This document shows, one piece after another, positions 2,276 to 47,585 of a stretch of DNA of 64,000 nt (position 1 is its first letter; each line of letters starts with the position of its first letter). Below the pieces are notes generated by a model. It did not search any database, had not been told where the DNA came from, and saw only the letters and a list, made by a program, of their open reading frames with translations. A program made the translations under genes and the position numbers. This DNA comes from Candidatus Latescibacterota bacterium (GTDB lineage: Bacteria; Latescibacterota; UBA2968; GCA-2709665): positions 4,512,001 to 4,576,000 of the forward strand of contig OZ252100.1 in NCBI GenBank assembly GCA_965248435.1, read 5' to 3'.

Positions 2276-2276
2276 A

Positions 2277-31921: not shown

Positions 31922-31978
31922 GTGGCCGTGAGCGGATAGCTTCTGATTGGTTTCTTGCTCGCGGCCGCGTTCTTTTTT
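31922..31978 (+). terminator. Terminator-like hairpin after the ncRNA
   Basis: GTGGCCGTGAGC ... GCTCGCGGCCGC followed by GTTCTTTTTT. Confidence 0.55.
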
Positions 31979-32090
31979 GTCCATATGATCTTACCTCTCA
32001 TCAGTGTTGAGAGGTTTTTTTGTTGTCAAATCAAGAATCCGAATTCTGTTATTCGCGGTCTGGAGACCGCTCCTACCGGACGTATTGGGC

Positions 32091-32127
32091 AAAAAGAAGC
32101 GCCCCCGGAAATCCTGTTCCCGGGGGC
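32091..32127 (-). terminator. Intrinsic terminator of the DUF151 gene
   Basis: GCCCCCGG/CCGGGGGC stem with an A-tract on the + strand (U-tract on the minus strand). Confidence 0.6.
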
Positions 32128-32149
32128 TGAAGGTCTCAGGCTCACCAGA

Positions 32150-32812
32150 TCAGTCTGTTTTTCCTTTGATGCGATCGATCTCCTTCTTGATGCGGGCCGC
32201 CTCCTCGTAACGCTCGAGTTTCGCCGCAATCTGCATCTCTCGACTCAAGTCTTCCAGTCTCCTTTTGCTCTCCCCTTTGCTCCCGTCTCTATTATCTGTC
32301 CGGTGAGTTTCCTTCAGGAGGTGTTCAATCGCGTCCTTGAGATCATCCGACCCAACCTGCACAGGGTCGGAGTGGGGTGGCTTGGCTTCAAATTCGAATC
32401 CCGCCTTTCCCTGCTTGACCATCAGTCCTGCCTTTGACAATACCTTTTCTGATATATATATGGGAGCACCACACCTGATGGCCAGGGCGATGCTATCGCT
32501 GGGGCGGGCATCAATGCAGATGGATTCCTGGACTGAAGAGATCACGATCTGGGCGTAGAAGGTCACATCTTTAAGGTCGACGATCTGAACCTCCTGCACC
32601 TTGGCACCGAGCTTTTCCATCAGGGCCACGAAGAAATCGTGAGTGGTGGGGCGGCCTGATCGATTTTTCGTCAGGGTGGCCAGGATCGATGCCGCTTCTG
32701 TCTCCCCGATGATGATCGGAAGCATCGTATCATCCCGGACGCTCTTCAGCCACACGATTGTCTGCTTCCTCAGCGCGTCTGAGGTCAGCCCCTTGACCTG
32801 CATTTCAATCAT
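32150..32812 (-). CDS. Bifunctional nuclease (DUF151) with C-terminal UvrB/UvrC motif
   Basis: 'LPIIIGETEA', 'RPTTHD', 'IDARPSDSIALA', 'ERYEEAARIKKEI'. Confidence 0.9.
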   Translation of the reverse strand: MIEMQVKGLTSDALRKQTIVWLKSVRDDTMLPIIIGETEAASILATLTKNRSGRPTTHDFFVALMEKLGAKVQEVQIVDLKDVTFYAQIVISSVQESICIDARPSDSIALAIRCGAPIYISEKVLSKAGLMVKQGKAGFEFEAKPPHSDPVQVGSDDLKDAIEHLLKETHRTDNRDGSKGESKRRLEDLSREMQIAAKLERYEEAARIKKEIDRIKGKTD

Positions 32813-32878
32813 TACGATCCCATCATCTCAGTGAAATCACAGTGCTACTAGGAGGGCACTCTTATGCTATTTAAACTC

Positions 32879-32894
32879 TGCAATCGCTGTGCCA
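32879..32894 (-). promoter_or_regulatory. Consensus sigma-54 promoter upstream of the DUF151 gene
   Basis: Minus strand reads TGGCAC-AGCGA-TTGCA, about 67 nt upstream of the ATG. Confidence 0.75.
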
Positions 32895-33505
32895 GTTCCA
32901 TCAGCCAACCAGGAATTGGCCTAATCTTCGCTAAATCAAACGGTTACTTATTCTGTTCTTTTTTGTAGAGGTTTCAGGGTGGGAAAGGACCGGCGCTAAG
33001 TGTGGCGGAAGTGCCTCAACGGCGGGCTGGCACGTGAAGCAATCCGCCGATCTCCGAGTCCTGGACTACAACGGGCACAATGTCTTTCACAGTTTCTCGT
33101 TTTCGGACCTGGGGGAACCGGTCTTCTACGAAGGCGAATCGTTTGACCCGTTTGTGCCTGAAGAGGTGGCGAAGGTTGAGAGAAGAACCGGGTCTCTTTG
33201 GGGCAGCAGGCACTTTCACGTGAACAACACGCTGTATTGAACATTTTCAAGGTGCATAAACTCCGCAGGGACAACCAACCTGACCACAGAACAGATGTTT
33301 CGACCGACGGCGTTTAGATAACAATTTATTTTTAAAACAGTTAGTCGCAAATCGCCTTTCGCTTGACATTCCCAATCTTTAAGGCCATGTTTGATATTAA
33401 GTGGGTCAGTTCTTGGGGTCCGATGAGGGGTTCCTCCGCCATTTCTGGTATTCTGCGAACTGTTGTTCGTTCCGGGCGTCATGGGTGGAGAGGGGGGATT
33501 GGAAG

Positions 33506-33687
33506 ATGCCGATCTATGACTACCACTGACTGAGTGCGATCATGCCTTTTCCGTAACAGAAAGGATCAGCGAGCATGCTTCGAAGAAGGTGAAGTGTAAG
33601 GCTTGTTGGAAGCACCGTTGTCGAGCGGGTTTTTGCTTCCTCCTTGCCAAAGCTTCAAAGAAGAGCATACGGAGCACCTATGTATAG
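33506..33687 (+). pseudogene. FmdB-family zinc-ribbon gene with several indels
   Basis: MPIYDYH then a frameshift; restored reading is C-TEC-DHAF...KVKCKAC-GS..VERVF, the FmdB signature. About three indels in 180 bp. Confidence 0.7.
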
Positions 33688-33753
33688 ATGACGCGTCCAT
33701 TCAAGCGGGAAAGTGAAGGACATTGTATGAAACTCCGAACAAGGAGGAGAGAC

Positions 33754-34098
33754 ATGGCCGAAGCGACTGAGAAACTTCAAGAGGTCGAAGAAGTAAGCTT
33801 GCTGGACCAGACGCGGAAGAGAATGAGGACAGGAGAGGTCGGGGATACGGAACGTCTGATCTCGACCGTGACGGGCGGGACGATCCTGCTGTTCGGCCTG
33901 GGGCTGATCCGACGGTTTTTGGGCGGAGCAGGGCTTGCGGCGGCTGGAGGTTATCTTCTCTACCGAGGGATGACGGGCAAATGCCCCGCGTCGAAGGTCG
34001 TGGAGGACCGGTTCACCGCACTGGAACAGGCCATACAGAAGGAGAAGGATCAGGCAAAATCGAACGGCAAAGGGGAAGTCGAGACTTCTGAAGCTTAA
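33754..34098 (+). CDS. DUF2892 (YgaP-like) membrane protein
   Basis: AGGAGG then ATG; 'VGDTERLIS..GG..LLYRGMTGKCP'. Confidence 0.75.
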   Translation: MAEATEKLQEVEEVSLLDQTRKRMRTGEVGDTERLISTVTGGTILLFGLGLIRRFLGGAGLAAAGGYLLYRGMTGKCPASKVVEDRFTALEQAIQKEKDQAKSNGKGEVETSEA

Positions 34099-34118
34099 GG
34101 GTTCGACAAATATAGACA

Positions 34119-34147
34119 AAGGGGGACCTCAGGTGGTCCCCCTTCTT
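34119..34147. terminator. Bidirectional terminator between convergent genes
   Basis: AAGGGGGACC-TCAGGT-GGTCCCCCTT with flanking A and T runs. Confidence 0.7.
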
Positions 34148-34182
34148 GCAGGTGGCCAAGAATGATCAGGCGGACGATCAGG

Positions 34183-35049
34183 TTACATCAAATCTTTGAA
34201 CGCGCCTGGTAGCCCGGACATTCGGCGTTCGAAATAGTCTTGCATCTGGCCCATGGCGTGGTTCCTGATCTGTCGCACCCGCTCCCGTGTAATTCCCAGC
34301 TCTTGGCCGATATTGTCTAGTGTGCGTGGGCGCTGCTCATCCAGGCCGAAATACTCACCTACAACATGCTTTTCCCTGTCAGTGAGGGAGGCCATAGACT
34401 TCTGGATGAACTCTCTTTGGTCCCTCTGAAGCACGACACTGTCGACCTCCTCTGCTTCTGCTTTGATCACGTCCAGAAGCGTTCGATCTCCCCGGTCCGG
34501 TTTTTCGTAGAGCGGTGTGTCCAGTGAAAGGATGGGTTTTACACTCTTCAACGCGCGCTCGGCCCTTTCACGGCTGATCTTGACGTCATTCGAAACCTCC
34601 TCGAGCGTTGGCGTCCGACCGAGTTCTTGAGTCATTCGGTTCTGGTGACGGAGGATTCGCCCCATGTCTTCCTGCCTATTTGCGGGCACGGAGACGATCG
34701 AGTTCTGCTTGAGGGCCTTTTGAATCGATTGATGGATCCACCAGACCGCATAGCTGATGAATTTGTTTCCGAGGGTTTCGTCGAACCGTTTCAAGGCCTG
34801 TATCAGCCCGAGGTTCCCGTTCGCGATGAGTTCTGAGAGGGGCAGACCCCGCCCTCTATAGTGCATTGCGACGCTGACCACAAACCTGAGGTTTGAGGTG
34901 ATCAGATGTTCAACGGCCTTCTGATCTCCTTTTCGGATCCGTAGCACGGTCTTTTCTTCTTCCTCCCGACTCATAGGAGGATATTTTCGAAGCTCTGCCA
35001 TGTAGCTCTGGACGGTACGCGTATCAGGTTCTTGGTGCAAAAATTTCAT
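34183..35049 (-). CDS. RNA polymerase sigma-70 factor, RpoD/RpoS-like, lacking region 1.1
   Basis: 'LITSNLRFVVSVA', 'KFISYAVWWI', 'SLDTP', 'GITRERVRQI'. Confidence 0.9.
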   Translation of the reverse strand: MKFLHQEPDTRTVQSYMAELRKYPPMSREEEEKTVLRIRKGDQKAVEHLITSNLRFVVSVAMHYRGRGLPLSELIANGNLGLIQALKRFDETLGNKFISYAVWWIHQSIQKALKQNSIVSVPANRQEDMGRILRHQNRMTQELGRTPTLEEVSNDVKISRERAERALKSVKPILSLDTPLYEKPDRGDRTLLDVIKAEAEEVDSVVLQRDQREFIQKSMASLTDREKHVVGEYFGLDEQRPRTLDNIGQELGITRERVRQIRNHAMGQMQDYFERRMSGLPGAFKDLM

Positions 35050-35445
35050 CTCGGGGCCTCTTTAGAGAACTTTAGACCCTCCCCTTCACTAAGACGATTC
35101 CTGTCCATAACTTATTGAAAATATACCAGTTTTTTAAGTGTTGGGAAGGGGTAGATAGCGCGGTACGTCGGTCATACGACAGCTTGGAGGGAACAACCGT
35201 TAGCTACTCTTACTTTTTTGTATAGGCTAAATAAACAATATCTTATCTCTGGTTCTGGTTGCCTGGTCATTATCCTACAGTTCCTGGCAACAGCAAAAAT
35301 TTCAATGCTTGAATTCAAAGCCCCCTGAACATTATATTTGTAGTATACCGGCCTTGCCACACATCGAAGGACCTCCAAACGCATCGGGTGACCGGGCGGT
35401 TATTCGGGGATTCGGACGATCCTTATTTCTTCAAGGGGAAAGAGC

Positions 35446-36120
35446 ATGGCGATCATAACCCTTTCCAGGGAGTACGGTAGCGGCGGCCGTAAAGTGGGTG
35501 CCAAGGCCGCTGAGGCCCTTGGGTACTTCCTGTTGGACAAAGACCTGATCCGGGGGGTTGCACTGGAGGCAAACGTACCGGTCTCGGAGGTTGAAAGCTT
35601 CGACGAACAACCCGAGCATCCCATAGCCCGGGCCGTCCGAAAATTACTGACCCCGACCCACCCAGGAGTCGTAACCGGTTTCGAGGGAGATTTGTGGGGG
35701 ACGATGGTGGGTGTTCCGGGCTTGGGCGATGAGGGCGAACTGCAGGAGAACCTGGATGAGGATGCTTATGTAAGCATGACGCAAAAGGTGATGCTTCACA
35801 TTGCGAATAAGGGAAATGTAGTCATAACCGGACGAGGCAGCCAGGCGCTGTTTTCCGACCGAGCAGATGTCCTTCACGTTCGGATTGTGGCGAATGAGGC
35901 GTTCAAGATCCAATACCTCATGGAGGAAGATGGTCTCCTCCGGGACGACGCGATTAAGCGTATCCGAAAAGTGGACGACCAGCGTCGTCGCTACATCAAG
36001 CGACACTTCGGTATTGTGTGGGATAGGCCAGAATATTATCACATGATCATTAACACCGAAAAGACAGCGGTAGACGGGGCATCTCACCTAATCGTGCAGG
36101 CCGTACGTAACCTTCAGTGA
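35446..36120 (+). CDS. Cytidylate kinase-like family protein
   Basis: 'IITLSREYGSGG', 'VVITGRGS', 'D..RRRY', 'YHMIINT'. Confidence 0.85.
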   Translation: MAIITLSREYGSGGRKVGAKAAEALGYFLLDKDLIRGVALEANVPVSEVESFDEQPEHPIARAVRKLLTPTHPGVVTGFEGDLWGTMVGVPGLGDEGELQENLDEDAYVSMTQKVMLHIANKGNVVITGRGSQALFSDRADVLHVRIVANEAFKIQYLMEEDGLLRDDAIKRIRKVDDQRRRYIKRHFGIVWDRPEYYHMIINTEKTAVDGASHLIVQAVRNLQ

Positions 36121-36349
36121 GGCAAAGACAGTCTCTCGAGGGAACAATAGCAGTATCGGTGTTCATTTTCGAATAACACGAGCTTTAATTCAGTAGGCGA
36201 CCAGTCGATCTTTTGATGCGCAATTGCATCAATCTAATCGTCTCCTCTGGAGCTGCTGCTGAGTGAAGCCTTTGAAACCGTCGTCAATGTCTGCTGCAGA
36301 GTGGCCGCATTGACGATTTTCTTTTTTCTTCAACCCTGCGAATCTCCTC

Positions 36350-37057
36350 ATGAGAAATGCACCTCTCATAGGTATGACGACTCATCACCGTGATGATCAA
36401 CACGGCTTTACCCTACCCGACAAGTACGTCGATGCGCTGCGCCGAGCAGGAGGCATCCCCTTCTTGATTCCGCCGGGTGAAAGACGCCTGGACCAGTTGC
36501 TGGTCCTTTTGGACGGGATGGTTCTGTCCGGCGGCGGCGACATCGATCCCGCTTCGTACGGAGGCCAGGATCACGAAGCCCTATACAACGTCAGCCCGGA
36601 AAGGGATGAGACCGAACTCGCTATCATCTCAAAAATTGTTAGCACGCGAATGCCGCTGATGTTCATTTGTCGTGGGATGCAAATGCTCAATGTGGCACTT
36701 GGCGGCACGATCATCCCACATTTGCCGGATGTCGTAGGAGAAAAGGTTAGCCACCGTGCTCCTCCCCGTAGCCCGATTCCTCATTCCGTTCAAATTCATT
36801 CGGATTCTCGGTTGGCTGAAATTATGCAAGCCGACTCTGTAGAAACGGCATCGTGGCACCACCAGGCGATCGAAAAACTTGCACAGCCGTTAAGAGTCGT
36901 CGCCCACGCACCTGATGGAACGATCGAGGCGGTAGAGTTACCTGACCATCCGTGGCTAGTGGCTGTTCAGTGGCATCCGGAAGTCACAGCAGCCGATGAC
37001 CCGACTCAACAGCGACTCTTCGACAGCCTGGTAGAATTTGCTACGAACGAGAAATGA
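36350..37057 (+). CDS. Gamma-glutamyl-gamma-aminobutyrate hydrolase family (peptidase C26, PuuD-like)
   Basis: 'LSGGGDIDP', nucleophile in 'ICRGMQ', 'SWHHQA', 'VQWHPE'. Confidence 0.9.
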   Translation: MRNAPLIGMTTHHRDDQHGFTLPDKYVDALRRAGGIPFLIPPGERRLDQLLVLLDGMVLSGGGDIDPASYGGQDHEALYNVSPERDETELAIISKIVSTRMPLMFICRGMQMLNVALGGTIIPHLPDVVGEKVSHRAPPRSPIPHSVQIHSDSRLAEIMQADSVETASWHHQAIEKLAQPLRVVAHAPDGTIEAVELPDHPWLVAVQWHPEVTAADDPTQQRLFDSLVEFATNEK

Positions 37058-37198
37058 TTCCAAGATTGAAGGAAGTGGGCAAGGGCGTTGTATTGCCCAA
37101 ACGACCAGAATCAGCTAGATTGATTGTAGTAACCATTTGATTTCAATCGTACTTGGGGAATCACAACTCAACTGATATCCCAAGGCGAAGGGTGAGCC

Positions 37199-38485
37199 AT
37201 GAAAGGATCTTACAGACGGATTCGCGCCCTCTTCCCGGATCAACTGGGTCTGGCACGAGGAAAGTACGTTCCCGCAGCCCTCGCCAAACAGGGGGTGCGG
37301 CAATGCATCACGCTGTTTGCCACGGCGCTGGACAGGACGTTGACACCTGCCCCAGGAGCCGGAATGTTGGAAGGTCTGCCGGATTGCGAGCTTACCTTTT
37401 CGGCGGAGGATGTCAAACCATCCTGGGAACAAGACACTGGCGTTGTGGTGGGCGATTTGCAATTCCAGGGTAAGCCGCTGGCCATCTCCTCGCGACTGGC
37501 GTTACGGAGAGCGGTCGACGATTGGCAGGCACTGGGTTACAAAGTGAAGATCGGCATTGAATTCGAAGCTTTCGTGCTTCAGCGTGATGGCAGCGGAGAG
37601 TGGACCGAATGGGACACACCCGGGGCTTACGTTTACGGCACGGGAACAGCCGTCGATCCGATCGGTCTGATGGACGAAATTATGCAAACTGCCGAGGCGT
37701 GCGAACTTCCCGTCGAGTCGGTAAATTCGGAGTACGAGACGCCCCAGTTCGAACTGACTTTGCGCTACGGTGATGCACTCGAAGCGGTTGACAATGCCTT
37801 TTTGTTCAAGTTGATGGCGAGAGAATTGGCGGCAAAGCACGGCCTGTTGCTCACGACCCTTGGCAAGCCCTTGGGAGATCGGGGCGGCAGCGGTCTTCAC
37901 ATCAATTTTTCGCTCGAGGACGGTAAGGGAAACAACCCGCTCTCTGATCCAAAATCTGCGGATGGTCTATCACAAATTGCTCACTACTGTATCGGTGGTC
38001 TTGTGGAGCATCACGAAGGCATGACGGCCTTGCTTGCGCCAACGGTCAACGCATACAAACGACTGTGTCCGGGACAGCTCGTTGGCTACTGGGCAAACTG
38101 GGGGTATGACCACCGCGTTGTGACAATCCGAGTGCCGGAAGAACGCGGTACTGCGACAAGACTTGAACATCGGATGGGTGACGGAGCTGCGAATCCGTAT
38201 CTCGCCACTGCCGCGGTGCTGCAGGCAGCGCGGTTGGGTGTGGCTAACGAGCTCCAGCCGTCGGCCGCCGAAGAACAGGACGGCCTTGAGAACGTGAGCA
38301 CAGATCGTCACGTTCCTGACGATCTTAACCTGGCGCTGGACGCACTCGAAAGAGACCGTGAATTGGTGGAGGCAATCGGTCAGGAGCTGGTCGATAACTT
38401 CGTCGCCAACAAGAGATTCGAGTGGGAAAAGTTCGCGGCCGCCGTAACGGATTGGGAACTGCGCTACTATCTGCCTTTCTATTAG
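37199..38485 (+). CDS. Glutamine synthetase-like gamma-glutamyl-amine ligase (PuuA-like)
   Basis: 'GLARGK', 'GIEFE', 'SEYETPQFE', 'GSGLHINFS', 'NAYKRL', 'RLEHR..ANPY'; adjacent to a C26 hydrolase. Confidence 0.85.
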   Translation: MKGSYRRIRALFPDQLGLARGKYVPAALAKQGVRQCITLFATALDRTLTPAPGAGMLEGLPDCELTFSAEDVKPSWEQDTGVVVGDLQFQGKPLAISSRLALRRAVDDWQALGYKVKIGIEFEAFVLQRDGSGEWTEWDTPGAYVYGTGTAVDPIGLMDEIMQTAEACELPVESVNSEYETPQFELTLRYGDALEAVDNAFLFKLMARELAAKHGLLLTTLGKPLGDRGGSGLHINFSLEDGKGNNPLSDPKSADGLSQIAHYCIGGLVEHHEGMTALLAPTVNAYKRLCPGQLVGYWANWGYDHRVVTIRVPEERGTATRLEHRMGDGAANPYLATAAVLQAARLGVANELQPSAAEEQDGLENVSTDRHVPDDLNLALDALERDRELVEAIGQELVDNFVANKRFEWEKFAAAVTDWELRYYLPFY

Positions 38486-38587
38486 AAAGTGATCCACGAC
38501 CGCAGACGGCGACATGAATGGCGTGATCATAGGGGTTAGCTGTCCGCGGTCTGTGGTCATGTATGCTGGTTTTGCACGACACAAGAG

Positions 38588-39865
38588 ATGCCTGCAGTGA
38601 AAACAACCCCTCCCAAATCCGACCTCGGCGATGCCTTCGCCGACATAACCGACCCTGACATCTACGTGCAGGGCGTTCCGCACGCCACATTCAAACGGTT
38701 GCGCCACGAAGACCCGGTAAGTTGGTGGGAGGAGAAAGAGGGTTCTGGATTCTGGGCCGTGACCCGCTATGAGGACATCATCACAGTGAGCCACGACCCG
38801 GGCCTGTTCTCTAGCGCCTCTGGCATTCGCCTAGAGGAAATGGATGAGGAAGAGCTGGAGGCGCGTTGTACGCTCATGGAGGTAGACCCACCCGAGCACT
38901 CGAGGTACCGGCGTCTGGTGCAGCCACAGTTCCTGCCCGATTCAGTAAATGCATATGAGGCTGCCATCCGTCTGCAGGCACGGGCGGTGATCGATGATGT
39001 GAAGGGAGAAAGTGAGTTCGACTTCGTGGAACGCGTTGCGACGCAACTCCCTATGCGGATGTTGGGGAAACTGTTAGGGGTCTCCGACAGCGACGGGGAT
39101 TGGCTCGTTAAAATGGGTGATGCGCTGATCGGCAACATGGATCCGGAGTTTACGACTCACCCTGTCGATCTGGTGGACACGGATGAATATCGACTGATGC
39201 CATTCCGAAGTCCCGTGAGCTACGAACTGTTCGAATACGCCGAGAACCAGGCCAGAGAACGCATGGCGAATCCTGCCGAAGATTTGATTACCCGCCTGCT
39301 CCAGCCGATGCGGGATGGGAATCGGCTTTCCGAAGAGGAGTTCAAAAACTTTTTCACCTTACTCGTCGCTGCAGGAAATGACACGACGCGCTACACAATG
39401 GCCGCGGGAATGCTGGCCCTGATCAACCACTCGGAACAGATGGCTGAGTTGAGGGACAACTTGACCTTGATGTCGTCCGCGACCGAAGAAATTCTACGCT
39501 GGGGCTCGGTGACGATGCATTTTCGTCGCACGGCGACACAGGACGCTGAACTGGGTCGCAGGCACATCAAGGCGGATGACAAGGTGGTAATCTGGTTCAT
39601 CTCCGGTGACTACGACGAGCAGCAGTTTCCCGATCCTTACCGGTTCGACATCAAGCGTTCGCCGAATAACCACGTCGCGTTCGGTCTGAGAGGTCCCCAC
39701 AAGTGTCTGGGTGAGCATCTGGCTCGCCTCGAAATTAAGGTGCTCTTCGAAGAGTTGCTACCTCTTCTGGCAGACATAAGACTGGGCGGCCCCATAGAGA
39801 GGCTGCGTTCAAATTTCATTTCGGGAATCAAGCACCTTCCCGTCAAAGCGACCTGGGTTCGATAA
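38588..39865 (+). CDS. Cytochrome P450
   Basis: I-helix 'AGNDTT', K-helix 'EEILR', heme ligand 'FG..GPHKCLG'. Confidence 0.95.
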   Translation: MPAVKTTPPKSDLGDAFADITDPDIYVQGVPHATFKRLRHEDPVSWWEEKEGSGFWAVTRYEDIITVSHDPGLFSSASGIRLEEMDEEELEARCTLMEVDPPEHSRYRRLVQPQFLPDSVNAYEAAIRLQARAVIDDVKGESEFDFVERVATQLPMRMLGKLLGVSDSDGDWLVKMGDALIGNMDPEFTTHPVDLVDTDEYRLMPFRSPVSYELFEYAENQARERMANPAEDLITRLLQPMRDGNRLSEEEFKNFFTLLVAAGNDTTRYTMAAGMLALINHSEQMAELRDNLTLMSSATEEILRWGSVTMHFRRTATQDAELGRRHIKADDKVVIWFISGDYDEQQFPDPYRFDIKRSPNNHVAFGLRGPHKCLGEHLARLEIKVLFEELLPLLADIRLGGPIERLRSNFISGIKHLPVKATWVR

Positions 39866-39878
39866 CCCAAGCGAGGGT

Positions 39879-40688
39879 GTGGATATGCCCATCAGTGGAT
39901 ACACGGCCCCCCTTTCGCCCGATGGAAGGGCCGGTATCGTGCCGCCTCCGCCGTGGCACTACTCGGGTGACTTCTTGATTGTCGAATACCGAACCGATCC
40001 GGAAGCCGTCACCGCCCTGTTGCCTCCGGAACTCCAACCGGCAGACGACCCGGGTGCGGTTGCCGCCATCTTCGCGGACTGGCAATCCTGCTCGGACGAT
40101 TTTCACGAACTGGTCGACCCGATTCAGTCTCAATACAAGGAGTTTTTCATCGTGGTGGGCTGTAAATACGACGGAAAACCGGCCAGCCGCTGTGTCTATA
40201 TCTGGGTCGATAAGGACTTCGCGATGTATCGGGGCTGGATTCAGGGTTTTCCGAAGAAACTGGGCTCCATCCACATGACACGCGTGTATCCAGTGGGGAA
40301 GGCCTTCCCGGCCATCGAGGCGGGTGCCCGTTTCGGTGCAACGTGCTGCGCGAACGACCGACAGATTGCACGCGCTGTGGTTACCCTTCAACGAATTTCT
40401 GAGACAGGCCCGACGGTCAATGATCCTCCGATGCACAATACCCGTCACTTCCCGGCCTACGACGGCCTGGTCCCCGACGTTTTCGAAATGGTCAAGGCCG
40501 GCGGGTTCGACCGCGAGGTCACGGAAATTTGGGAGGGGGATGCCGAGCTGACTTTTTACCCGGATACGATAGAGGACCTGAAGGCTATTGCTCCCGAAGA
40601 GATTATCATGGGCTATCGTTTTTCCTTTGCCTACACGGTGGAGGGTGGCGAGGTCCTTGCTCAACACGACAGGGTGGTGCATCAGTGA
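39879..40688 (+). CDS. Acetoacetate decarboxylase-like family protein
   Basis: 'PPPWHYSG', 'QYKEF', 'IWVD..RGWIQGFPKKLG' with the Schiff-base Lys region. Confidence 0.85.
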   Translation: MDMPISGYTAPLSPDGRAGIVPPPPWHYSGDFLIVEYRTDPEAVTALLPPELQPADDPGAVAAIFADWQSCSDDFHELVDPIQSQYKEFFIVVGCKYDGKPASRCVYIWVDKDFAMYRGWIQGFPKKLGSIHMTRVYPVGKAFPAIEAGARFGATCCANDRQIARAVVTLQRISETGPTVNDPPMHNTRHFPAYDGLVPDVFEMVKAGGFDREVTEIWEGDAELTFYPDTIEDLKAIAPEEIIMGYRFSFAYTVEGGEVLAQHDRVVHQ

Positions 40689-41548
40689 AACGTGCCCGGA
40701 TTCTCCATGGCGGGAAGCCAGTATGGGGCGTGGTCGAGGGCGGCGTGATCAAACTCGAGACCGGGGAGTCGGTTGACGAGGATAAGGCCAAGTATCGGCC
40801 GCCTGTGGCACCCTCGAAAATAATGGCCACTCACCTCTCTTACCGCAGCCGCTGTGTCGAATACAAGATGAAAAGCATTCCCCAGTACCCTTCTTACTTT
40901 ATGGTGCCGCCGACGGCCCTTTCTTACCATACCGCTCCGATCGCCCGACCTCGCGGATGCCACTTTCTGAATTACGAAGGGGAGGTCGCCGTCGTGATCG
41001 GAAAGCAATGCGTCAACGTGCCTGTCGAGGAGGCGCTGAGCTATGTAGCCGGGTACACGATCGCCAATGATTGGGGCGTTCACGACTTCCGGCACGCCGA
41101 CCGCGGTTCGATGTTTCGGGTGAAAGGCCAGGATGGGTTTTGCCCGGTCGGTCCGGTATTGGTGGACGCGGAAGATGTCGACCCCGATGACCTGACCCTG
41201 CGCACCACGGTAAACGGCGAGGTGGTCCAGGAGGGTCATACCGGCAGCGATCTCATCTTCTCTTTCGCTTACCAGATCGCGGACATCGCCCGACTGATCA
41301 CCCTGGAACCGGGTGACCTCTTGCTCACGGGCACTCCGGCCAACTCGAGGCCAGTAGAGATCGGGGATGTAGTTGCGGTGGAAGTCAGTGGAATCGGCCG
41401 CCTGGAGAATACGGTGGTCGAGCTGGACAGGGACCTGGTGCCGATTGGCGAGCAGCCTGCCGTTACCGGGGCCACACTTCACGTCGCACTGACCATACCT
41501 GAAGACGAAGCGGAACGACGTGCCTCTGAGTTTGGCGCGGATAACTAA
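40685..41548 (+). CDS. Fumarylacetoacetate hydrolase family protein
   Basis: GTGA overlap with the upstream stop; 'YEGEVAVVIG', 'GYTIAND', 'KGQDGFCPVGP', 'LEPGDLLLTGTP'. Confidence 0.9.
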   Translation: MKRARILHGGKPVWGVVEGGVIKLETGESVDEDKAKYRPPVAPSKIMATHLSYRSRCVEYKMKSIPQYPSYFMVPPTALSYHTAPIARPRGCHFLNYEGEVAVVIGKQCVNVPVEEALSYVAGYTIANDWGVHDFRHADRGSMFRVKGQDGFCPVGPVLVDAEDVDPDDLTLRTTVNGEVVQEGHTGSDLIFSFAYQIADIARLITLEPGDLLLTGTPANSRPVEIGDVVAVEVSGIGRLENTVVELDRDLVPIGEQPAVTGATLHVALTIPEDEAERRASEFGADN

Positions 41549-41564
41549 GAAGGAAGAACAGACG

Positions 41565-42482
41565 ATGAAACTCGTAACGGCTTTGCACCACGCTGCGCTA
41601 CGCGTGGCGGACCTGGCCGAGGCCTTTGAACGGTGGTCACACCTCTACGGCTTGAACGGAGCGTGCTTTGATGACCACGCCCGTCTGCGCTGCACACACG
41701 AAGACTTTTGTCTGTTGCTGCTTCCGTCACCAAAGGAACCAGGGCTCGAGTATGTCGCCTACGAGCTCATGCCGGGCCTGACCCTGGGCGAGGCTGCGGC
41801 GGAGCTCTCCAGGCGTGGGGTGGAGGCCCGAGAGATTGGGGTCCCTGTGCGGGACAAGGGTCTGCGGCTTTCTGATGCCGACGGAAATGGCATTGTTCTA
41901 CTGGAGCGCCAAACGTCCGAGGACACGCGCCCCGCTGAAATGATCTTAACTGGGGAGGTGCCCGGCTTCCACCCGCGTCGTTTGGGTCACGTGAACTACC
42001 TGACAGAGGACGTAAAACGGGCCGAAAAATGGTACGTGGAAAAACTCAGCTTCTCAGTAACAGACTGGATTGGCGATGAGGGATTGTGGCTGCACGTGAA
42101 CCCGATTCACCACGTAGCGGCCTTCTTGCAAAAGGGATTCAACCACATTCACCACATCGCCCTTGAGCTGGTCGACTGGGGCGAGATGCGCGTCGCGTTG
42201 GACCATCTGGCAAAAAACGAGAGAAGTGTAACGTGGGGACCGGGCCGTCATGGCATGGCCCGAAACATCTTCAGTTACTTGCGTATGCCCGAGGAAGACA
42301 TCTTTGTAGAACTATACTGTGACATGCAGCAGCTGGAGATTGACCACGTGCCGTTCCGGCATCCGGACGCGCCGCATTCATCGAATACCTGGGGCATCCT
42401 GCCGCCGCGTACCTATTTCCGTTTTGATGAAGAAGCGATCCAAATGGAACGGGACCAGACTTACGCATATGCCATGCCGTAG
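41565..42482 (+). CDS. VOC-superfamily extradiol ring-cleavage dioxygenase (catechol 2,3-dioxygenase-like)
   Basis: Two VOC domains; 'RRLGHVN', 'HH', 'HHIALE', 'WGPGRHG', Tyr and Glu in 'FSY..PE..FVELY'. Confidence 0.85.
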   Translation: MKLVTALHHAALRVADLAEAFERWSHLYGLNGACFDDHARLRCTHEDFCLLLLPSPKEPGLEYVAYELMPGLTLGEAAAELSRRGVEAREIGVPVRDKGLRLSDADGNGIVLLERQTSEDTRPAEMILTGEVPGFHPRRLGHVNYLTEDVKRAEKWYVEKLSFSVTDWIGDEGLWLHVNPIHHVAAFLQKGFNHIHHIALELVDWGEMRVALDHLAKNERSVTWGPGRHGMARNIFSYLRMPEEDIFVELYCDMQQLEIDHVPFRHPDAPHSSNTWGILPPRTYFRFDEEAIQMERDQTYAYAMP

Positions 42483-42704
42483 AAATGGGTTCTTCGCCGA
42501 GTCCGATCATACTTTTGCCGGCCATCGCTGTAGGACCGGTCTCCTGACCGGGAACTGGCTTCACATTCTTCTTCTAAGGCCAGAATGCAATGCCGGCAAT
42601 CTCAGCACCTTTAACCTCGGGCCCTAGTCAACGCAATCGCCCTGTTCCCCGACTGGAGTCGGATCCTACAGTTATCGGTGCCTATTCCCATGAGAGTGGT
42701 TTTG

Positions 42705-43013
42705 ATGCCAAAATTCGTCACAGTAGCTCAGAAATCTGAAATTTCCAGCGAATCGGGACGATGCGTCGAGGTTGAGGGCAAGCGCATCGCGCTGTTCAAT
42801 CTGGGGGGCGATTTCTACGCGATCGATGACTCGTGTCCCCACGAAGGCGGACCACTCAGCGAAGGTTTCATAGAGGGCGAGGAGGTGGAATGCCCCTGGC
42901 ACGGCGCCTGTTTCAACATTAAATCGGGGGCGGTTACTGCGCCGCCGGCCTTCGAGGACGTCACCAGATTCAACGTACGGGTCACAGAGAACGATATAGA
43001 AATCGAGGTCTAA
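42705..43013 (+). CDS. Rieske [2Fe-2S] ferredoxin
   Basis: CPH-x16-CPWH ('SCPHEGGPLSEG..ECPWHG'). Confidence 0.9.
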   Translation: MPKFVTVAQKSEISSESGRCVEVEGKRIALFNLGGDFYAIDDSCPHEGGPLSEGFIEGEEVECPWHGACFNIKSGAVTAPPAFEDVTRFNVRVTENDIEIEV

Positions 43014-43055
43014 CCGGGTTCAGAAATAGATTCAGCTGTCTGGCTGGAAAATGGC

Positions 43056-43084
43056 TTGACAGCACGATCACAATTTCTTAATCT
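43056..43084 (+). promoter_or_regulatory. Sigma-70 promoter of the aromatic operon leader
   Basis: TTGACA-17 nt-TAATCT, about 30 nt upstream of the leader peptide start. Confidence 0.65.
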
Positions 43085-43114
43085 TTATTACAGAGCATCA
43101 AAAGGAGACTGAAA

Positions 43115-43219
43115 TTGAACTTGCAAACGGGCAGCACGCTCTTTTGGCGCAACGCATACGATGGGTCCTTCTGGTATTACCGGCAAGGCGCGCGGGGAGC
43201 TGTATGCCCACCTGGTTAA
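43115..43219 (+). CDS. Aromatic-amino-acid leader peptide (34 aa; MNLQTGSTLFWRNAYDGSFWYYRQGARGAVCPPG)
   Basis: AAGGAG RBS then TTG; 2 Phe, 2 Trp and 3 Tyr clustered; overlaps the antiterminator upstream of trpE. Confidence 0.75.
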   Translation: MNLQTGSTLFWRNAYDGSFWYYRQGARGAVCPPG

Positions 43220-43274
43220 CGAGGTTCTGACCGACCGATTCAGGGGCCGTGGGCATACGCTCACGGCCCTTTTT
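43202..43274 (+). terminator. Attenuator: antiterminator and intrinsic terminator
   Basis: Terminator GGGCCGTGGGC-ATAC-GCTCACGGCCC-TTTTT (43244-43274). GTATGCCCAC (43202-43211) is the exact complement of GTGGGCATAC (43249-43258). Confidence 0.8.
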
Positions 43275-43331
43275 ACGTTCATCTAAAGGCCTTGACAATG
43301 TTTTCATTCGTTTTTTCCGTAATGCTAAGCC

Positions 43332-43360
43332 GTAGAGACGCCCCGCCGGGGCATCTCTAC
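43332..43360. repeat. GTAG-type REP-like palindrome
   Basis: GTAGAGACGCCCCG-CCGGGGCATCTCTAC, a near-perfect inverted repeat with GTAG/CTAC ends. Confidence 0.65.
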
Positions 43361-43386
43361 AGGACATTCAAGGATCGGGTTGGATC

Positions 43387-44856
43387 ATGATTTCCCTCGA
43401 AAACGTTCGCGGTTTGGCTGATCGCGGAGGGTTGGTTCCGGTGTCTCGTAAGATTCTGGCTGACACCGAGACGCCTGTCTCGGCCTACCTCAAGATTCGC
43501 TCCAAAAGCCCATACGCCTTCCTGTTCGAAAGCGTGGAGGGTGGCGAGAAGATCGGTCGCTACTCGTTCCTGGGCGTCGGACCCTTTCTCATCTTCAGGT
43601 CGCGGGGCGCCGAAATCCAGGTAGAGGATCTGGAAAAGGGCGAAAAGAAGACGTTCGAAGGAGATCCGATCTCCGAATTCCGAAAGCTGTTGAAGCGTTT
43701 TCGTTCGGTACACGTGGATGGCCTGCCGCGATTTACAGGCGGCGCCGTCGGCTACGTCGGCTACGATGCGATCCGCCTGATCGAGGACATTCCAGACCAG
43801 ACGGTGGATGACATGGAACTGGACGATATCCTCTTTCTGTTCTTCGATACGCTGCTGGCGTTCGACAACATCCAACACCAGATTCATCTCATTTCGAACG
43901 TTCACACGAGTGGAAATCTGGAGGCCAGCTACCGAAGAGCGGTGGACCGGATCATCTCTCTGGAGGAGACCTTGCAGCGTCCGTCCCTGGTTACGCTTTC
44001 TAAAGGGGGGAGCGCCTGCGATGTGCGGTCAAACACCGAACCTTCGGATTATCTGGACAAGGTTCGTCGTTGCAAGGAATATATCGTTTCGGGAGACGTG
44101 CTCCAGGTGGTGCTCTCTCAACGATTTGAAACAGAAGTAACGGTAGATTCCTTAGACGTCTACAGAATGCTTCGTGTCGTGAATCCTTCACCGTATATGT
44201 TTCACCTGGATCTCAAAGACCTGCAGATTGTCGGCACGTCTCCGGAGTTGCTCGTTCGCGTAGAGGAAGGGGTCGTTCAGGTGCGCCCTATCGCTGGAAC
44301 GCGATGGCGGGGTCAGACGGAGCAGGAAGATCGTCACCTGGCCGATGAGCTGCTCGCCGACGAAAAGGAGCGGGCCGAGCACATTATGCTTGTTGATCTC
44401 GGCCGAAATGACGTCGGACGTGTGTCAGAATTCAACACGGTTCGCGTGACCGATCAGATGGTGATCGAGCGCTATTCACACGTGATGCACATCGTTTCGA
44501 ACGTGATGGGTGAACTCCGTAAGGACGTGGATGCGCTCGACGCCCTTTTCGCGTGCTACCCCGCTGGCACGGTTTCAGGGGCCCCGAAGGTTCGTGCGAT
44601 GGAGATCATCGACGAGCTCGAGCCGACCCGGCGGGGACCGTATGCTGGTGCCGTGGGTTACATCGACTTTTCTGGAAACATGGACACCTGCATCGCGATT
44701 CGAACGATGATCCTGAAAAACGGCAAGGCATACGTACAGGCAGGAGGAGGTATCGTGTTCGATTCGGTCCCCGAAAACGAATACCAGGAAACTGTGAACA
44801 AATCCCGGGCACTATTCCGAGCGGTCGAGCTGGCGGAGCGCGGGGAACTCAGATGA
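43387..44856 (+). CDS. trpE: Anthranilate synthase component I
   Basis: '[16 protein letters not shown]', 'QVVLSQR', 'NPSPYM', 'RPIAGT', '[12 protein letters not shown]', 'GAPKVRAM'. Confidence 0.97.
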
Positions 44857-45416
44857 TCCTGATGATCGATAATTACGATTCCTTCACGTATAACCTGGTC
44901 CAGTATTTGGGAGAGCTGGGGGCCGAGTTGGAGGTCCATCGCAACGATCAGATCTCACTTCAGGAAGTGGAAAGCCTTGCGCCAGAAAAGGTTGTGATCT
45001 CGCCCGGCCCGTGTACGCCGAACGAGGCGGGAATCTCAGTGGAATTGATTCAGGTGTTTGCAGGCCGGTTTCCCATTCTGGGGGTCTGTTTGGGACACCA
45101 ATCGGTCGGTCAGGCCTTCGGGGCCGACATCGTCGGCGCACCCACAATTATGCACGGCAAGGTTTCGGAGATATACCACGACGACAGGACGGTTTTCAAG
45201 GGTCTTTCGCAGGGCTTCGTTGCCACCCGCTATCACTCCCTTGTCGTGGATAGAGAAACACTGCCGGACTGTATGGAGGTCTCGGCCGAAACGTCGGAGG
45301 GAACAATCATGGGCGTTCGACATAAAAAGCTGCCCGTCGAGGGCGTCCAGTTCCACCCAGAGTCGATCCTGACTGGTGAAGGGAAAAATCTCCTTCGAAA
45401 TTTCTTGGAGGCCTGA
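44853..45416 (+). CDS. trpG: Anthranilate synthase component II (glutamine amidotransferase)
   Basis: ATGA overlap with trpE; '[12 protein letters not shown]', 'SPGPC', 'GVCLGHQ', 'QFHPES'. Confidence 0.95.
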
Positions 45417-45426
45417 GGGGATAGAA

Positions 45427-46440
45427 ATGGACATGCAGGCAGCAATTGCTAAAGTGATAGAGGGTGAGGATCTCACTCGCGGAGAAACCGTCGCAGTGAT
45501 GGACCAGATTATGTCCGGGAAGGCGACCGAGGCACAGATTGGTGCGTTTCTGGTAGCGCTCCGCCTTAAAGGGGAGACGGTGGATGAGATCGTTGGCGCT
45601 GTTGAAGTGATGCGTGAAAAAGCAACTCCAATAGAGACAAGTCACGACATCGTCGTCGATACCTGCGGGACGGGTGGCGACCGTTCAGGTACATTCAATA
45701 TCTCCACAACGGCCGCCTTTGTGGTTTCCGGCTCAGGATTATGCGTAGCGAAACACGGAAACCGCGCGGCATCGAGCCAATGCGGAAGTGCCGACGTGTT
45801 GAAGGCGCTCGGTGTGAACATCGAAGCAACACCGGAGAAGGTTGGCGCGTGCCTGGACAAGGTAGGTATCGGGTTCTTGTTCGCGCCCGCGCTGCACGGA
45901 GCCATGAAGCACGCCATCGGCCCGCGCCGTGAGATCGGCATTCGCGTGATCTTCAATGTCCTCGGGCCGCTAACGAATCCTGCGGGCGCACGTCGGCAGC
46001 TGATTGGGGTTTACGACAGTGATTTGACCGAGACGCTGGCCGAGGTGCTTGGGCAGCTCGGATCTGAGCGGGCCCTCGTGGTACACGGTCTGGATGGGTT
46101 GGACGAGATTACGCTGACGGGTCCAAGCCGAGTATCTGAGCTAAAAGACGGAGACGTAAAGAGCTACGAGGTTGCGCCGGAAGATTTCGGGCTTTCGCGG
46201 AGCAGCGCGGAAGATCTAAAAGGGGGAGATGCCGAGACGAACGCCGATATCCTCCGGTCCGTGCTGGTCGGTCAGAAAGGTCCGACACGGGATGTCGTCC
46301 TCCTGAATGCTGCCGCGGCCCTCGTCGCGGGCGGGAGAGCAGAGGATATCTCAACGGGGGTCGAGATTGCTGCGGGAGCGATCGATTCTGGAATGGCTAT
46401 GCAGAAGTTGGAAGGCCTGATTGCGGAAAGTAACACTTAA
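45427..46440 (+). CDS. trpD: Anthranilate phosphoribosyltransferase
   Basis: 'DTCGTGGD', 'FNIST', 'KHGNR', 'GPLTNP', 'GLDE'. Confidence 0.97.
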
Positions 46441-46442
46441 TG

Positions 46443-46620
46443 CCGTGGATCGTGGATCGACGTTCGTGGATCGTGAAAAGACCGGGTACCGGGTATCATA
46501 AGAGATCGGCGGTGTAGGGGCGACGCACGCGTCGCCCGGGGGAAAGCAAAATACGGGTACCGGGGTTCGGGTAAGAGATCGCGGATCGCGGATTTCGAAT
46601 TGGGGATTGCGGAATCGAAT
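46443..46620. repeat. Composite repeat copy (REP hairpin within ACCGGGT 7-mers) with extra CGTGGAT/GCGGATT 7-mer runs
   Basis: GTAGGGGCGACGC-AC-GCGTCGCCC at 46514-46537, flanked by ACCGGGTACCGGG and AAAATACGGGTACCGGG as in the copies at 24949 and 60886. Confidence 0.75.
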
Positions 46621-46793
46621 GCAGAACAGATGGATCACTTTATCGACAACCCCCCTGAATCCCTGAGTGCGGAGGCTGTAAGTTCGTTTTGGATCGCGCG
46701 TCCGTATATCGAAGGGTCGGGCATAGCGAGCATTAGTCGTCAACTTCCGTGGATCGCGGGGGATGGCGGGCAAATTCCAGGAAGATTGATAAC

Positions 46794-47585
46794 GTGGGTG
46801 GAATTCTAGACGAAATTATCGAGTACAAGCGAGCGTTCGTCTCGGAGGCCCGCAAGCAGGTGTCGATCGAGGAAATGGCACAAACGGCCGCGAGTCGCCT
46901 GCCAGGTTCTTCTTTCGCGGGGAGCCTTACGGCCAGTGAGGACGTTGCAGTGATCGCCGAGGTGAAGAAGGCGTCGCCCTCCCGGGGGGTTATTCGGGCC
47001 GATTTCGATCCGGTGGCGATCGCGAAGACCTATGCGTCACAGGGGGCGTCGGCCATTTCTGTCCTAACAGACGAAAAGTACTTCCAAGGATCGGCGGGCG
47101 ACCTGAGCCTTGTGCGCAAAGCGGTCAATATTCCAGTGCTTCGTAAGGATTTCGTCGTTGACGCCTACCAGGTTTACGAGGCGAGGCATTTGGGTGCCTC
47201 TGCTGTCCTGCTGATCGTCGCCGCCCTATCGGCCGGCGAACTAGGGAATTTCATCGATCTGTGCAGGGAAGTCCGGATTGATGCCCTGGTCGAGGTGCAC
47301 ACCGAAGCGGAACTCGAGGTCGCTCTCAGGGCGGAGGCAAAGATCATCGGGATCAACAACAGAGATCTCAGGACCTTTGAGACCGATCTGCAGACGACGA
47401 TGACGGTCGTAAAAAAGATTCCCAGCGGGACGATTGTGGTGAGCGAAAGTGGGATCTTTACCAGGGATGACGTGCTTAAGGTGCAGGATGTCGGCGTGGA
47501 TGCGGTGCTGATTGGAGAGGGTTTGATGCGGGAGGCCGATATGGGTGCGAAACTTCGTGAATTGCTGGGACGGCAGGCCGCGTGA
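46794..47585 (+). CDS. trpC: Indole-3-glycerol phosphate synthase
   Basis: 'IAEVKKASPSRG', 'SVLTD..F.G', 'LRKDF', 'GINNRDL', 'VSESGI'. Confidence 0.97.
   Translation: MGGILDEIIEYKRAFVSEARKQVSIEEMAQTAASRLPGSSFAGSLTASEDVAVIAEVKKASPSRGVIRADFDPVAIAKTYASQGASAISVLTDEKYFQGSAGDLSLVRKAVNIPVLRKDFVVDAYQVYEARHLGASAVLLIVAALSAGELGNFIDLCREVRIDALVEVHTEAELEVALRAEAKIIGINNRDLRTFETDLQTTMTVVKKIPSGTIVVSESGIFTRDDVLKVQDVGVDAVLIGEGLMREADMGAKLRELLGRQAA

Follow-up and report, generated by a model that had tools for sequence, protein, structure and literature searches.

A gene cluster joining a gamma-glutamyl-amine ligase and a cytochrome P450 to extradiol ring-cleavage genes in a Latescibacterota genome, a candidate route of arylethylamine catabolism

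In the aniline systems (AtdA1-A5 and TdnQTA1A2B), a glutamine synthetase (GS)-like ligase and an amidotransferase-like hydrolase act on the aromatic amine ahead of catechol meta-cleavage. The Ipu systems of Pseudomonas sp. KIE171 and Paenarthrobacter aurescens TC1 encode a GS-like ligase, a cytochrome P450 and an amidotransferase-like hydrolase together, and follow a logic in which the nitrogen is masked, a remote C-H bond is hydroxylated (presumably the role of the P450 in the isopropylamine pathway) and the nitrogen is unmasked. In the Puu pathway (PuuA-D), gamma-glutamylation is followed by oxidation to an aldehyde, an aldehyde dehydrogenase (ALDH) and a C26 hydrolase that releases 4-aminobutyrate (GABA). 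Tyramine and dopamine are reportedly degraded through an amine oxidase to (di)hydroxyphenylacetate, a route attributed to Arcos et al. 2010 and the P. putida U 'catabolon'. Here, a seven-gene cluster was analysed in a stretch of 64,000 nucleotides from a Candidatus Latescibacterota bacterium (contig OZ252100.1, positions 4,512,001 to 4,576,000; the whole stretch is referred to as the window). The best reading of the cluster is an Ipu-type front end joined to a homoprotocatechuate-type meta-cleavage back end. Judged from the encoded proteins and their relatives, it is slightly likelier than otherwise to be an operon for the breakdown of an arylethylamine, with tyramine and/or dopamine as the foremost candidates; the amine would be masked with glutamate, oxidized by the P450 and opened at the ring.

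The open reading frame (ORF) listing and Pfam matches placed seven co-directional, tightly packed genes on the plus strand between 36350 and 43013 (Table 1), all of them where the preliminary description of this DNA had put them, and the Pfam domain content of the window agreed with its remark that reductase, transporter and regulator genes are missing from the cluster. Intergenic distances in the order C26 hydrolase, GS-like ligase, P450, ADC-fold protein, FAH-family protein, VOC dioxygenase and Rieske ferredoxin were 141, 102, 13, −4, −29 and 195 bases. The FAH frame was listed from 40529 to 41548; the likely start is a GTG at 40685 that overlaps the ADC stop codon and gives a protein of 287 aa, typical of the orthologues (284-291 aa). 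The sole strong hairpin lies between the Rieske stop codon (43013) and the trpE start (43387); it is terminator-like and would end the seven-gene unit, and no convincing internal terminator was found within the cluster. An Rfam search of positions 35000-44000 gave no match, hence no T-box or other known leader, and a promoter scan yielded no more sites than shuffled sequence, with no promoter in the gap at 36121-36349. Recurrence in other phyla puts the arrangement far outside what chance would produce.

Table 1. Features of the seven-gene cluster and the hairpin downstream of it (window positions).
Feature	Positions	Strand	Evidence
C26 hydrolase (peptidase C26 / class I amidotransferase-like gamma-glutamyl amide hydrolase)	36350-37057	+	PF07722, 204 bits
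GS-like gamma-glutamyl-amine ligase	37199-38485	+	PF00120, 283 bits
Cytochrome P450 monooxygenase, CYP125/124/268/153 neighbourhood	38588-39865	+	PF00067, 92 bits
MppR/Sbi00515-like ADC-fold protein, proposed meta-pathway hydratase-aldolase	39879-40688	+	PF06314, 201 bits
Single-domain FAH-family protein, HpaG-like, proposed isomerase/decarboxylase	40685-41548	+	PF01557, 206 bits
Two-domain type I (VOC) extradiol catechol dioxygenase, HPCD-like	41520-42482	+	PF00903
Rieske [2Fe-2S] ferredoxin, 111 aa, pathway membership uncertain	42678-43013	+	PF00355, 70 bits
Terminator-like hairpin in trp leader	43242-43271	+	13-pair stem, 9 G-C pairs, then T run

The two halves of the cluster were found to be co-conserved, as judged from counts anchored on the P450 and, reciprocally, on the VOC dioxygenase. 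A scan of species-representative genomes with the P450 gave 80 loci from Chloroflexota, Acidimicrobiia, Nitriliruptorales, Deinococcales, Acidobacteriota and Gammaproteobacteria. In the 64 loci with a P450 at least 54% identical, presence of the other genes was called by tblastn, and many contigs were short, which makes the following counts lower bounds: ADC 41, GS 37, FAH 30, C26 13 and VOC 8 for the genes of the window cluster; ALDH 23, MarR 21, LigB 20 and pyridoxal phosphate (PLP)-dependent decarboxylase 12 for added genes; and other amidotransferase-like protein 11, 2-oxoglutarate (2OG) oxygenase 8, class III aminotransferase 7 and permease 6 for further ones. For the reverse count, an alignment of the VOC protein was searched against metagenome contigs, giving 262 stretches, 203 of them encoding relatives, of which 80 were kept. 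The 17 VOC loci flanked by 4 kb or more on each side carried FAH (17), ADC (16), P450 (16), GS (15) and ALDH (15), and at 50% identity or more the P450 was present in nine and the GS-like gene in eight; in all 80 of the loci kept, short contigs included, the numbers were FAH 57, ADC 45, ALDH 33, P450 24 and GS 23. The common order in soil loci was ALDH, GS, P450, beta-lactamase-fold hydrolase, ADC, FAH, VOC and a second ALDH; between phyla the gene order differed and the gene content was kept. The preliminary description had staked its proposal on co-conservation of the GS/C26 pair with the P450 and dioxygenase genes, and both sets of counts bear this co-conservation out.

Ring opening beside this P450 was encoded by either of two unrelated folds. 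Among the 64 loci, eight carried VOC, 20 carried LigB, none carried both and 36 neither. In Acidimicrobiia the ADC gene lies directly 5′ of the P450 gene and the LigB gene directly 3′, the LigB match in several loci starting about 30 bases or less after the end of the P450 match, and the sole NCBIfam match of the LigB proteins was HpaD_Fe, the LigB-type homoprotocatechuate dioxygenase (118-130 bits). Each of the two folds is nearest to its own homoprotocatechuate dioxygenase family, and they interchange beside the same P450, which strongly indicates that the pathway includes extradiol cleavage of a 4-substituted catechol.

An aromatic class of substrate was indicated by further genes of the related loci. 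Several of these loci encode group II PLP decarboxylases of the aromatic amino-acid type. The decarboxylase of locus L009 scored 714 bits against PDB 7xin, 'DOPA decarboxylase' (a literature search with the PDB code turned up no paper on this enzyme), and 340-365 bits against plant Tyr/DOPA decarboxylases, and that of L017 had 4obu as its best PDB match (222 bits); the linked decarboxylases form four divergent groups, none above a curated cut-off. The commonly linked ALDH scored best against HpaE (479-518 bits, below the cut-off of 638), the dehydrogenase for the homoprotocatechuate ring-fission semialdehyde, and the ALDH of L048 scored best against PuuC. In L100, a second ALDH encoded 3′ of VOC passed the cut-off of the aminobutyraldehyde dehydrogenase subfamily (693 versus 615) and failed the phenylacetaldehyde (465 versus 850) and succinic semialdehyde (359 versus 646) models. 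Together with LigB where VOC is absent and with the HpaD- and HpaG-like enzymes, these genes agree with the aromatic substrate put forward in the preliminary description.

The front-end proteins carry the residues expected of active enzymes and stand apart from the curated families. In the C26 protein the motifs ICRGMQ and WHPE are present, which we take to supply the catalytic triad; its best NCBIfam model was PuuD, at 116 bits against a cut-off of 266. The GS-like protein fell below all curated cut-offs (type III GS 251 of 470 bits, PuuA 224 of 650, GlnA 218 of 429). For the housekeeping model GlnA (TIGR00653) it scored 209 bits in genome-wide scoring, and two true GlnA genes elsewhere in the genome scored 668 and 496 bits; by these scores the GS-like protein is not the housekeeping glutamine synthetase of the cell. 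The P450 has the features of a functional monooxygenase, namely a Cys loop (FGLRGPHKCLG), the acid-alcohol pair of the I-helix (AGNDT) and an ExxR motif (EILR). Its best PDB matches were the ancestral reconstruction CYP125MRCA (379 bits), CYP268A2 (265), natural CYP125 (249) and CYP124 (241), with CYP153 also among the nearest; assignment to a CYP family is made at 40% identity or more to a named natural member. Homologues among the 120 matches listed were 68-78% identical to it, the few with a named source being from Chloroflexota and a Vicinamibacterales bacterium.

Of the back-end proteins, the ADC-fold protein aligned over its full length with the PDB entries 4jm3 (MppR, 233 bits) and 4zbo (204 bits), its K126 falling, within a GxPK motif, on the Schiff-base lysine K156 of MppR. 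It scored 249 bits against TIGR04460 (MppR, enduracididine biosynthesis; cut-off 380), and by Pfam the window cluster encodes neither a PLP oxidase nor an aminotransferase of the MppP/MppQ kind; with the catalytic lysine conserved, it may perform MppR-like chemistry. The FAH-family protein scored 212 bits against the HpaG C-terminal model (cut-off 276). For the VOC protein the best NCBIfam model was HpaD (TIGR02295), at 106.5 bits against a cut-off of 321.4, and a profile of six VOC orthologues matched catechol 2,3-dioxygenases and homoprotocatechuate dioxygenases in the PDB. Residues H157, N159, W190, H198, H212, H244, Y253 and E264 were invariant in all six orthologues and aligned, in this order, with H155, N157, W192, H200, H214, H248, Y257 and E267 of homoprotocatechuate 2,3-dioxygenase (HPCD), so that the type I extradiol metal triad (H157, H212, E264) and the second-sphere residues (H198, H244, Y253) are in place. 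The HPCD numbering agrees with positions counted from the printed chain offsets. The position of HPCD Arg243, presumably a contact of the substrate carboxylate, is taken in the VOC family by an invariant Trp239, and the equivalents of Asn157 and Trp192 are kept. From these alignments the protein is a credible extradiol catechol dioxygenase with an intact active site, HPCD-like and not a member of the HpaD family.

Annotated relatives were examined in cultured bacteria. On a plasmid of Streptomyces canus, genes for FAH, LigB (annotated 3,4-dihydroxyphenylacetate 2,3-dioxygenase), ALDH, ADC, an FAD oxidoreductase and a small ferredoxin are divergent from GS-P450, the cluster lying beside transposase and integrase genes. 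Novosphingobium sp. EMRT-2 carries MarR, LigB dioxygenase, P450-GS-ALDH, ADC and FAH-ALDH-2Fe-2S ferredoxin. Front-end genes without ring-cleavage genes were found in the megaplasmid of Ruegeria sp. TM1040 (locus L164, 3499-11692; an amidotransferase-P450-GS trio beside paaABCD, a 2Fe-2S protein and a GntR regulator), in Sagittula stellata E-37 (GS, amidotransferase and P450) and in Mesorhizobium loti NZP2037 (P450, 2Fe-2S reductase, permease, GS and PuuD-family hydrolase). In plasmids of Paenarthrobacter aurescens TC1, the pTC1 ipu cluster comprises an amidotransferase-like gene, P450, ferredoxin, reductase and ipuC. These annotated trios place the front end in a wider family of Ipu-like modules, with the back end setting the carbon skeleton that is degraded; the Ruegeria arrangement suggests that roseobacters use this front end to feed the phenylacetate pathway.

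In the favoured mechanism, each step of which is inferred, the GS-like ligase would mask the nitrogen by coupling the amine, at the expense of ATP, to the gamma-carboxyl group of glutamate, and the P450 would hydroxylate the masked amine, the favoured site being C3 of the ring, so that gamma-glutamyl-tyramine would become the catechol gamma-glutamyl-dopamine. The VOC dioxygenase would then cleave the catechol ring as homoprotocatechuate 2,3-dioxygenase does, and the ring-fission semialdehyde would be oxidized by an HpaE-like ALDH, whose gene is present in most related clusters and absent from the window. Isomerization and decarboxylation of the product would fall to the HpaG-like FAH protein, and the 2-oxo-3-enoate so formed would be hydrated and cleaved by the ADC-fold enzyme, by way of a Schiff base on lysine, to pyruvate and (gamma-glutamyl-)4-aminobutanal; after oxidation of the latter, removal of glutamate by the C26 hydrolase would release GABA. 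A free amine would close to a pyrroline after extradiol cleavage, a dead end, as in the chemistry of L-DOPA seco products; an acylated nitrogen would prevent the amine from closing onto the new aldehyde to give this five-membered imine. Ring hydroxylation with the nitrogen masked through cleavage is preferred because the Ipu logic is to mask nitrogen and functionalize a remote C-H bond. The same reading is further favoured by the abutment of the P450 and LigB genes, an aminobutyraldehyde-type second ALDH, the PuuD-like hydrolase and the invariant Trp that the VOC family has at the position of HPCD Arg243. Hydroxylation of the ring is held to be roughly twice as probable as hydroxylation next to the nitrogen.

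The latter alternative, which we regard as possible at perhaps one chance in five, retains the substrates and the front end and has the P450 hydroxylate the carbon next to the amide nitrogen. This N-dealkylation would give a carbinolamide that breaks down, spontaneously or aided by the C26 hydrolase, to an arylacetaldehyde together with either glutamine or glutamate and ammonia; dopamine would yield 3,4-dihydroxyphenylacetaldehyde, which an ALDH would convert to homoprotocatechuate for the ordinary meta pathway to pyruvate and succinic semialdehyde. Ligase and P450 would then be an ATP-driven substitute for an amine oxidase, the N5-alkylglutamine being dealkylated with its skeleton passing to the aldehyde and its nitrogen to the amide of glutamine, the general nitrogen donor of the cell, and the trios, set before differing downstream pathways (homoprotocatechuate meta-cleavage here, paa genes in Ruegeria), would be a general and hitherto unrecognized route for assimilation of alkyl- and arylalkyl-amine nitrogen, a notion to which we attach the same low probability. 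Adjacency of the Ruegeria trio to paaABCD is what would be expected if phenethylamine were converted to phenylacetate; the paa genes lie on the opposite strand with the GntR regulator between, and the adjacency may be coincidence. The high score of the L009 protein to 'DOPA decarboxylase', the closeness of both dioxygenase types to homoprotocatechuate dioxygenases, the two ALDHs of several loci and the action of the nearest solved P450s on aliphatic C-H bonds likewise suit N-dealkylation. It is countered by the second ALDH, which passes the aminobutyraldehyde model and neither the phenylacetaldehyde nor the succinic semialdehyde one; by the invariant Trp where HPCD has Arg243, the contact of the substrate carboxylate; by the abutting P450 and LigB genes, although an ALDH step would separate their reactions; and by the ATP cost, which is hard to explain as amine oxidases and transaminases, which are simpler, already deaminate.

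Other readings depart further from an arylethylamine pathway. Another aromatic amine, such as phenethylamine (with two hydroxylations), octopamine, a benzylamine like vanillylamine (with O-demethylation by the P450), tryptamine, serotonin or an aniline-type arylamine, is rather unlikely. The identity of the substrate rests only on the neighbouring decarboxylases with their four divergent groups, none of them above a curated cut-off; a second P450 occurs in some loci, and O-demethylation to a catechol by P450s is established chemistry. Set against this, the HpaD-, HpaE- and HpaG-like back end fits a 4-substituted catechol with a two-carbon side chain, aniline systems need the alpha and beta subunits of a Rieske oxygenase, which are absent here, and both decarboxylases searched against the PDB (L009 and L017) were closest to aromatic amino-acid decarboxylases. 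That the locus consists of two unrelated neighbours, an Ipu- or Puu-like C26-GS-P450 module for an aliphatic amine and an independent ADC-FAH-VOC module for another compound, is improbable: trios without ring-cleavage genes exist in Ruegeria, Sagittula and Mesorhizobium, and the nearest solved P450s are aliphatic hydroxylases, but the well-flanked VOC loci carry P450 in 16 of 17 cases and GS in 15, ADC directly precedes and LigB directly follows the P450 in Acidimicrobiia, and content is kept between phyla while order varies. Least probable is a biosynthetic cluster, in which the MppR-like enzyme would act as a cyclase and close the product of DOPA- or dopamine-type ring cleavage into a pyrroline, an alkylproline or a compound like betalamic acid. 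Extradiol cleavage of L-DOPA feeds several natural products. A 4-hydroxy-2-keto acid is the substrate of MppR itself, a biosynthetic cyclase, according to passages of bioRxiv 10.1101/2023.03.21.533663. However, the annotated loci held no non-ribosomal peptide synthetase, polyketide synthase, MppP/MppQ-type PLP enzyme or tailoring genes, the partners that recur are catabolic (HpaE-like ALDH, FAH, MarR, permease and aminotransferase), and glutamylation would block the cyclization that is required.

Several observations weigh against the arylethylamine operon with ring hydroxylation. None of the seven cluster proteins reached a curated NCBIfam cut-off. The co-conservation counts are similarity calls on contigs of metagenome-assembled genomes (MAGs) of unequal length, and related genomes are non-independent; a GS gene of at least 40% identity lay within 8 kb in five of the 20 LigB loci. 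Four sequencing runs that contain the stretch, all of a single study, are not recorded as RNA. The solved P450s nearest to this one attack aliphatic termini and not arenes; a linked decarboxylase specific for DOPA would already supply the catechol and leave a ring hydroxylase with nothing to do; and the Ruegeria trio beside paaABCD, with no ring-cleavage genes, fits side-chain oxidation better. The window cluster has no ALDH, decarboxylase, permease, regulator or reductase, and by Pfam no ferredoxin reductase in particular; the best relatives of the linked ALDH in the genome are only 33-37% identical, and for the linked decarboxylases the genome offers no orthologue, the one relative found being 26% identical. 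Lacking ALDH, decarboxylase and reductase in the cluster, the pathway here would be incomplete or dependent on genes elsewhere.

The place of the Rieske ferredoxin was considered separately. The protein has the CxH...CxxH ligands and scored under the cut-offs for HcaC, AndAb and NirD. A homologue near a P450 orthologue was found in one of 160 related loci (L054, 31% identity), and the protein was rejected as a conserved partner of the P450. Annotated relatives carry a small ferredoxin and an FAD reductase (S. canus) or 2Fe-2S proteins instead; homologues of the electron-transfer partners of the S. canus, Ipu and Novosphingobium P450s were not found in the genome of the window at E≤1e-6. The Rieske protein may be a P450 partner, a reactivator of the dioxygenase or a bystander. 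The preliminary description had the P450, possibly fed by this ferredoxin, oxidizing a glutamylated (aryl)amine before catechol cleavage; co-conservation of the genes and the aromatic class strengthen that proposal, and its electron-transfer part is not supported. In locus L005 (9236-10713), a second, unrelated P450 (best model a cyclodipeptide-synthase-associated P450, 177 bits) and a different Rieske protein directly follow the orthologous P450; a second P450 of this kind was seen in six of the 64 loci.

Two variants of the cluster were observed among the related loci. In seven full-length Acidimicrobiia loci (L006, L007, L008, L012, L013, L065 and L067; about 10300-13300 in each), ADC-P450 is followed by a divergent GS-like gene (37-44% identity) adjoining a 2OG-Fe(II) oxygenase gene, with neither VOC nor LigB within 8 kb; in L034, on a short contig without a GS match, the 2OG gene is present. 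This subgroup may represent a different oxidative route. In soil metagenome loci without C26 (L090, L093, L094, L098-L100, L105, L106, L115, L119 and others), a beta-lactamase-fold serine hydrolase is encoded between P450 and ADC and may be the amide hydrolase there.

The P450 was found in none of 30 relatives of this genome at E≤1e-100 (one of the same genus, 17 of the same family and 12 of the same order), a set of which 16 have a completeness of 90% or more and a contamination of 5% or less. The same-genus genome G001 has AcrB, GDH, cmk and trpE in an unbroken row, cmk and trpE standing about 0.6 kb apart, so that the cluster region (36.1-43.3 kb) and a segment at 29.9-35.4 kb represent insertion here or loss there. 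Absence from relatives and high identity to distant phyla point to horizontal acquisition of the cluster. The segment at 29873-35445, absent between GDH and cmk in G001, has a lower G+C content (0.52) and encodes a sigma-70 paralogue (34183-35049, minus strand), a bifunctional-nuclease-domain protein (32150-32812, minus strand) and small ORFs without a Pfam match; it is probably a second insertion.

Downstream, the region 43050-43386 contains a promoter-like TTGACA near 43057 and a Shine-Dalgarno-like AAGGAG before a short ORF (about 43115-43219) with two Trp codons, followed by the hairpin; it may be a leader-peptide attenuator, with no Rfam family matched. A supraoperon for aromatic amino acids extends over 43387-60862 (trpE, trpG, trpD, trpC, trpF, a TyrRS-type tRNA synthetase gene at 48217-49503, trpB, trpA, and genes for DAHP synthase and prephenate dehydrogenase, aroA, aroE, a ubiE-like methyltransferase gene, argS, aroK and aroB). 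A functional link of the cluster to the trp operon was rejected, trpE being near the P450 in one of 64 loci (36% identity). The trp operon comes with a promoter-like site, a leader and a hairpin of its own, and in G001 trpE directly follows cmk; on this evidence it is a separate unit. At 1577-13795 the window further contains a cluster of the type II DMSO-reductase family, with two YceI-like genes, a cytochrome c / EB_dh haem subunit (2976-4634), a molybdopterin subunit of 1156 aa (4647-8117), an Fe-S subunit, a NarJ-like chaperone and MobB, and NnrS on the opposite strand.

Full-text literature searches, with most subscription journals outside their scope, gave no description of gamma-glutamylated tyramine, dopamine or phenethylamine catabolism, nor of a system of GS-like ligase, P450 and extradiol meta-cleavage. 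Each module has precedent, and the combination does not appear to have one. If the proposal is true, the cluster would represent a widespread, uncharacterized bacterial route for biogenic aromatic amines (tyramine and dopamine), relatives having been retrieved from six or more phyla or classes, among both MAGs and isolates, and the idea of glutamate as a protecting group would extend from aliphatic amines and aniline to arylethylamines carried through ring cleavage. First functions would be assigned to a GS-like arylethylamine ligase, a very well conserved P450 clade, a divergent homoprotocatechuate-like dioxygenase and an ADC-fold meta-pathway hydratase-aldolase. Cultured carriers exist, among them Streptomyces canus NBC_00633, Novosphingobium sp. 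EMRT-2 and Desertimonas flava SYSU D60003, which makes the proposal directly testable.

Compared with the known systems, the cluster shares with the aniline pathways a GS-like ligase and an amidotransferase-like hydrolase, followed by meta-cleavage. Theirs use a two-subunit Rieske oxygenase with a reductase and lose the nitrogen as the catechol forms, whereas among the seven genes here there are no oxygenase subunits, only the non-conserved 111-aa Rieske ferredoxin, and a P450 instead. With Puu the cluster has gamma-glutamylation in common, and the proposed last steps, oxidation of an aldehyde and release of GABA by a C26 hydrolase, are the same; unlike Puu, it encodes no PuuB-type flavin oxidase, its oxidant is a P450, the expected skeleton is aromatic, and the PuuA and PuuD scores fall below the cut-offs. 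The homoprotocatechuate meta pathway (Hpa) is resembled in the HpaD-like dioxygenases of both folds, the HpaE-like ALDH, the HpaG-like FAH protein and the expected substrates, tyramine and dopamine. In contrast to Hpa, no score reaches an equivalog cut-off, neither an amine oxidase nor an HpaBC hydroxylase is encoded, and the nitrogen would be glutamylated; an ADC-fold protein stands in the place of HpaH and HpaI, no domain of either being present in the window, and the HpaDEFGHI set is thus not represented in full.

The ADC-fold protein resembles MppR, Sbi00515 and Sso1221/1222 in full-length similarity and in the Schiff-base lysine; MppP and MppQ partners are missing here, so the cluster is not for enduracididine synthesis. 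According to passages of PMC7820114, the MppR-like genes of S. solfataricus (Sso1221/1222) lie beside a catechol 2,3-dioxygenase gene and are induced about 80-fold on phenol, and their products were proposed as the meta-pathway aldolase; an aldolase role in meta-cleavage is proposed for the ADC-fold protein in S. solfataricus and here alike. The Ipu systems, ipuC and the isopropylamine pathway being named in parts of PMC1713258 and PMC10832564, resemble the front end in encoding ligase, P450 and hydrolase together. They differ in having their own ferredoxin and reductase, a small aliphatic amine as substrate and no ring-cleavage genes, and identity to the window proteins is too low for orthology (31% for the P450 and 35% for the amidotransferase-like protein of the pTC1 ipu cluster, 34% for annotated IpuC). 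The preliminary description had named flavin oxidases and Rieske dioxygenases as the oxidants of gamma-glutamyl pathways, a list that Ipu, in which a GS-like ligase and an amidotransferase-like hydrolase already accompany a P450, shows to be incomplete. With this precedent the P450 is less unprecedented than was stated there, and its link to ring cleavage is the new part.

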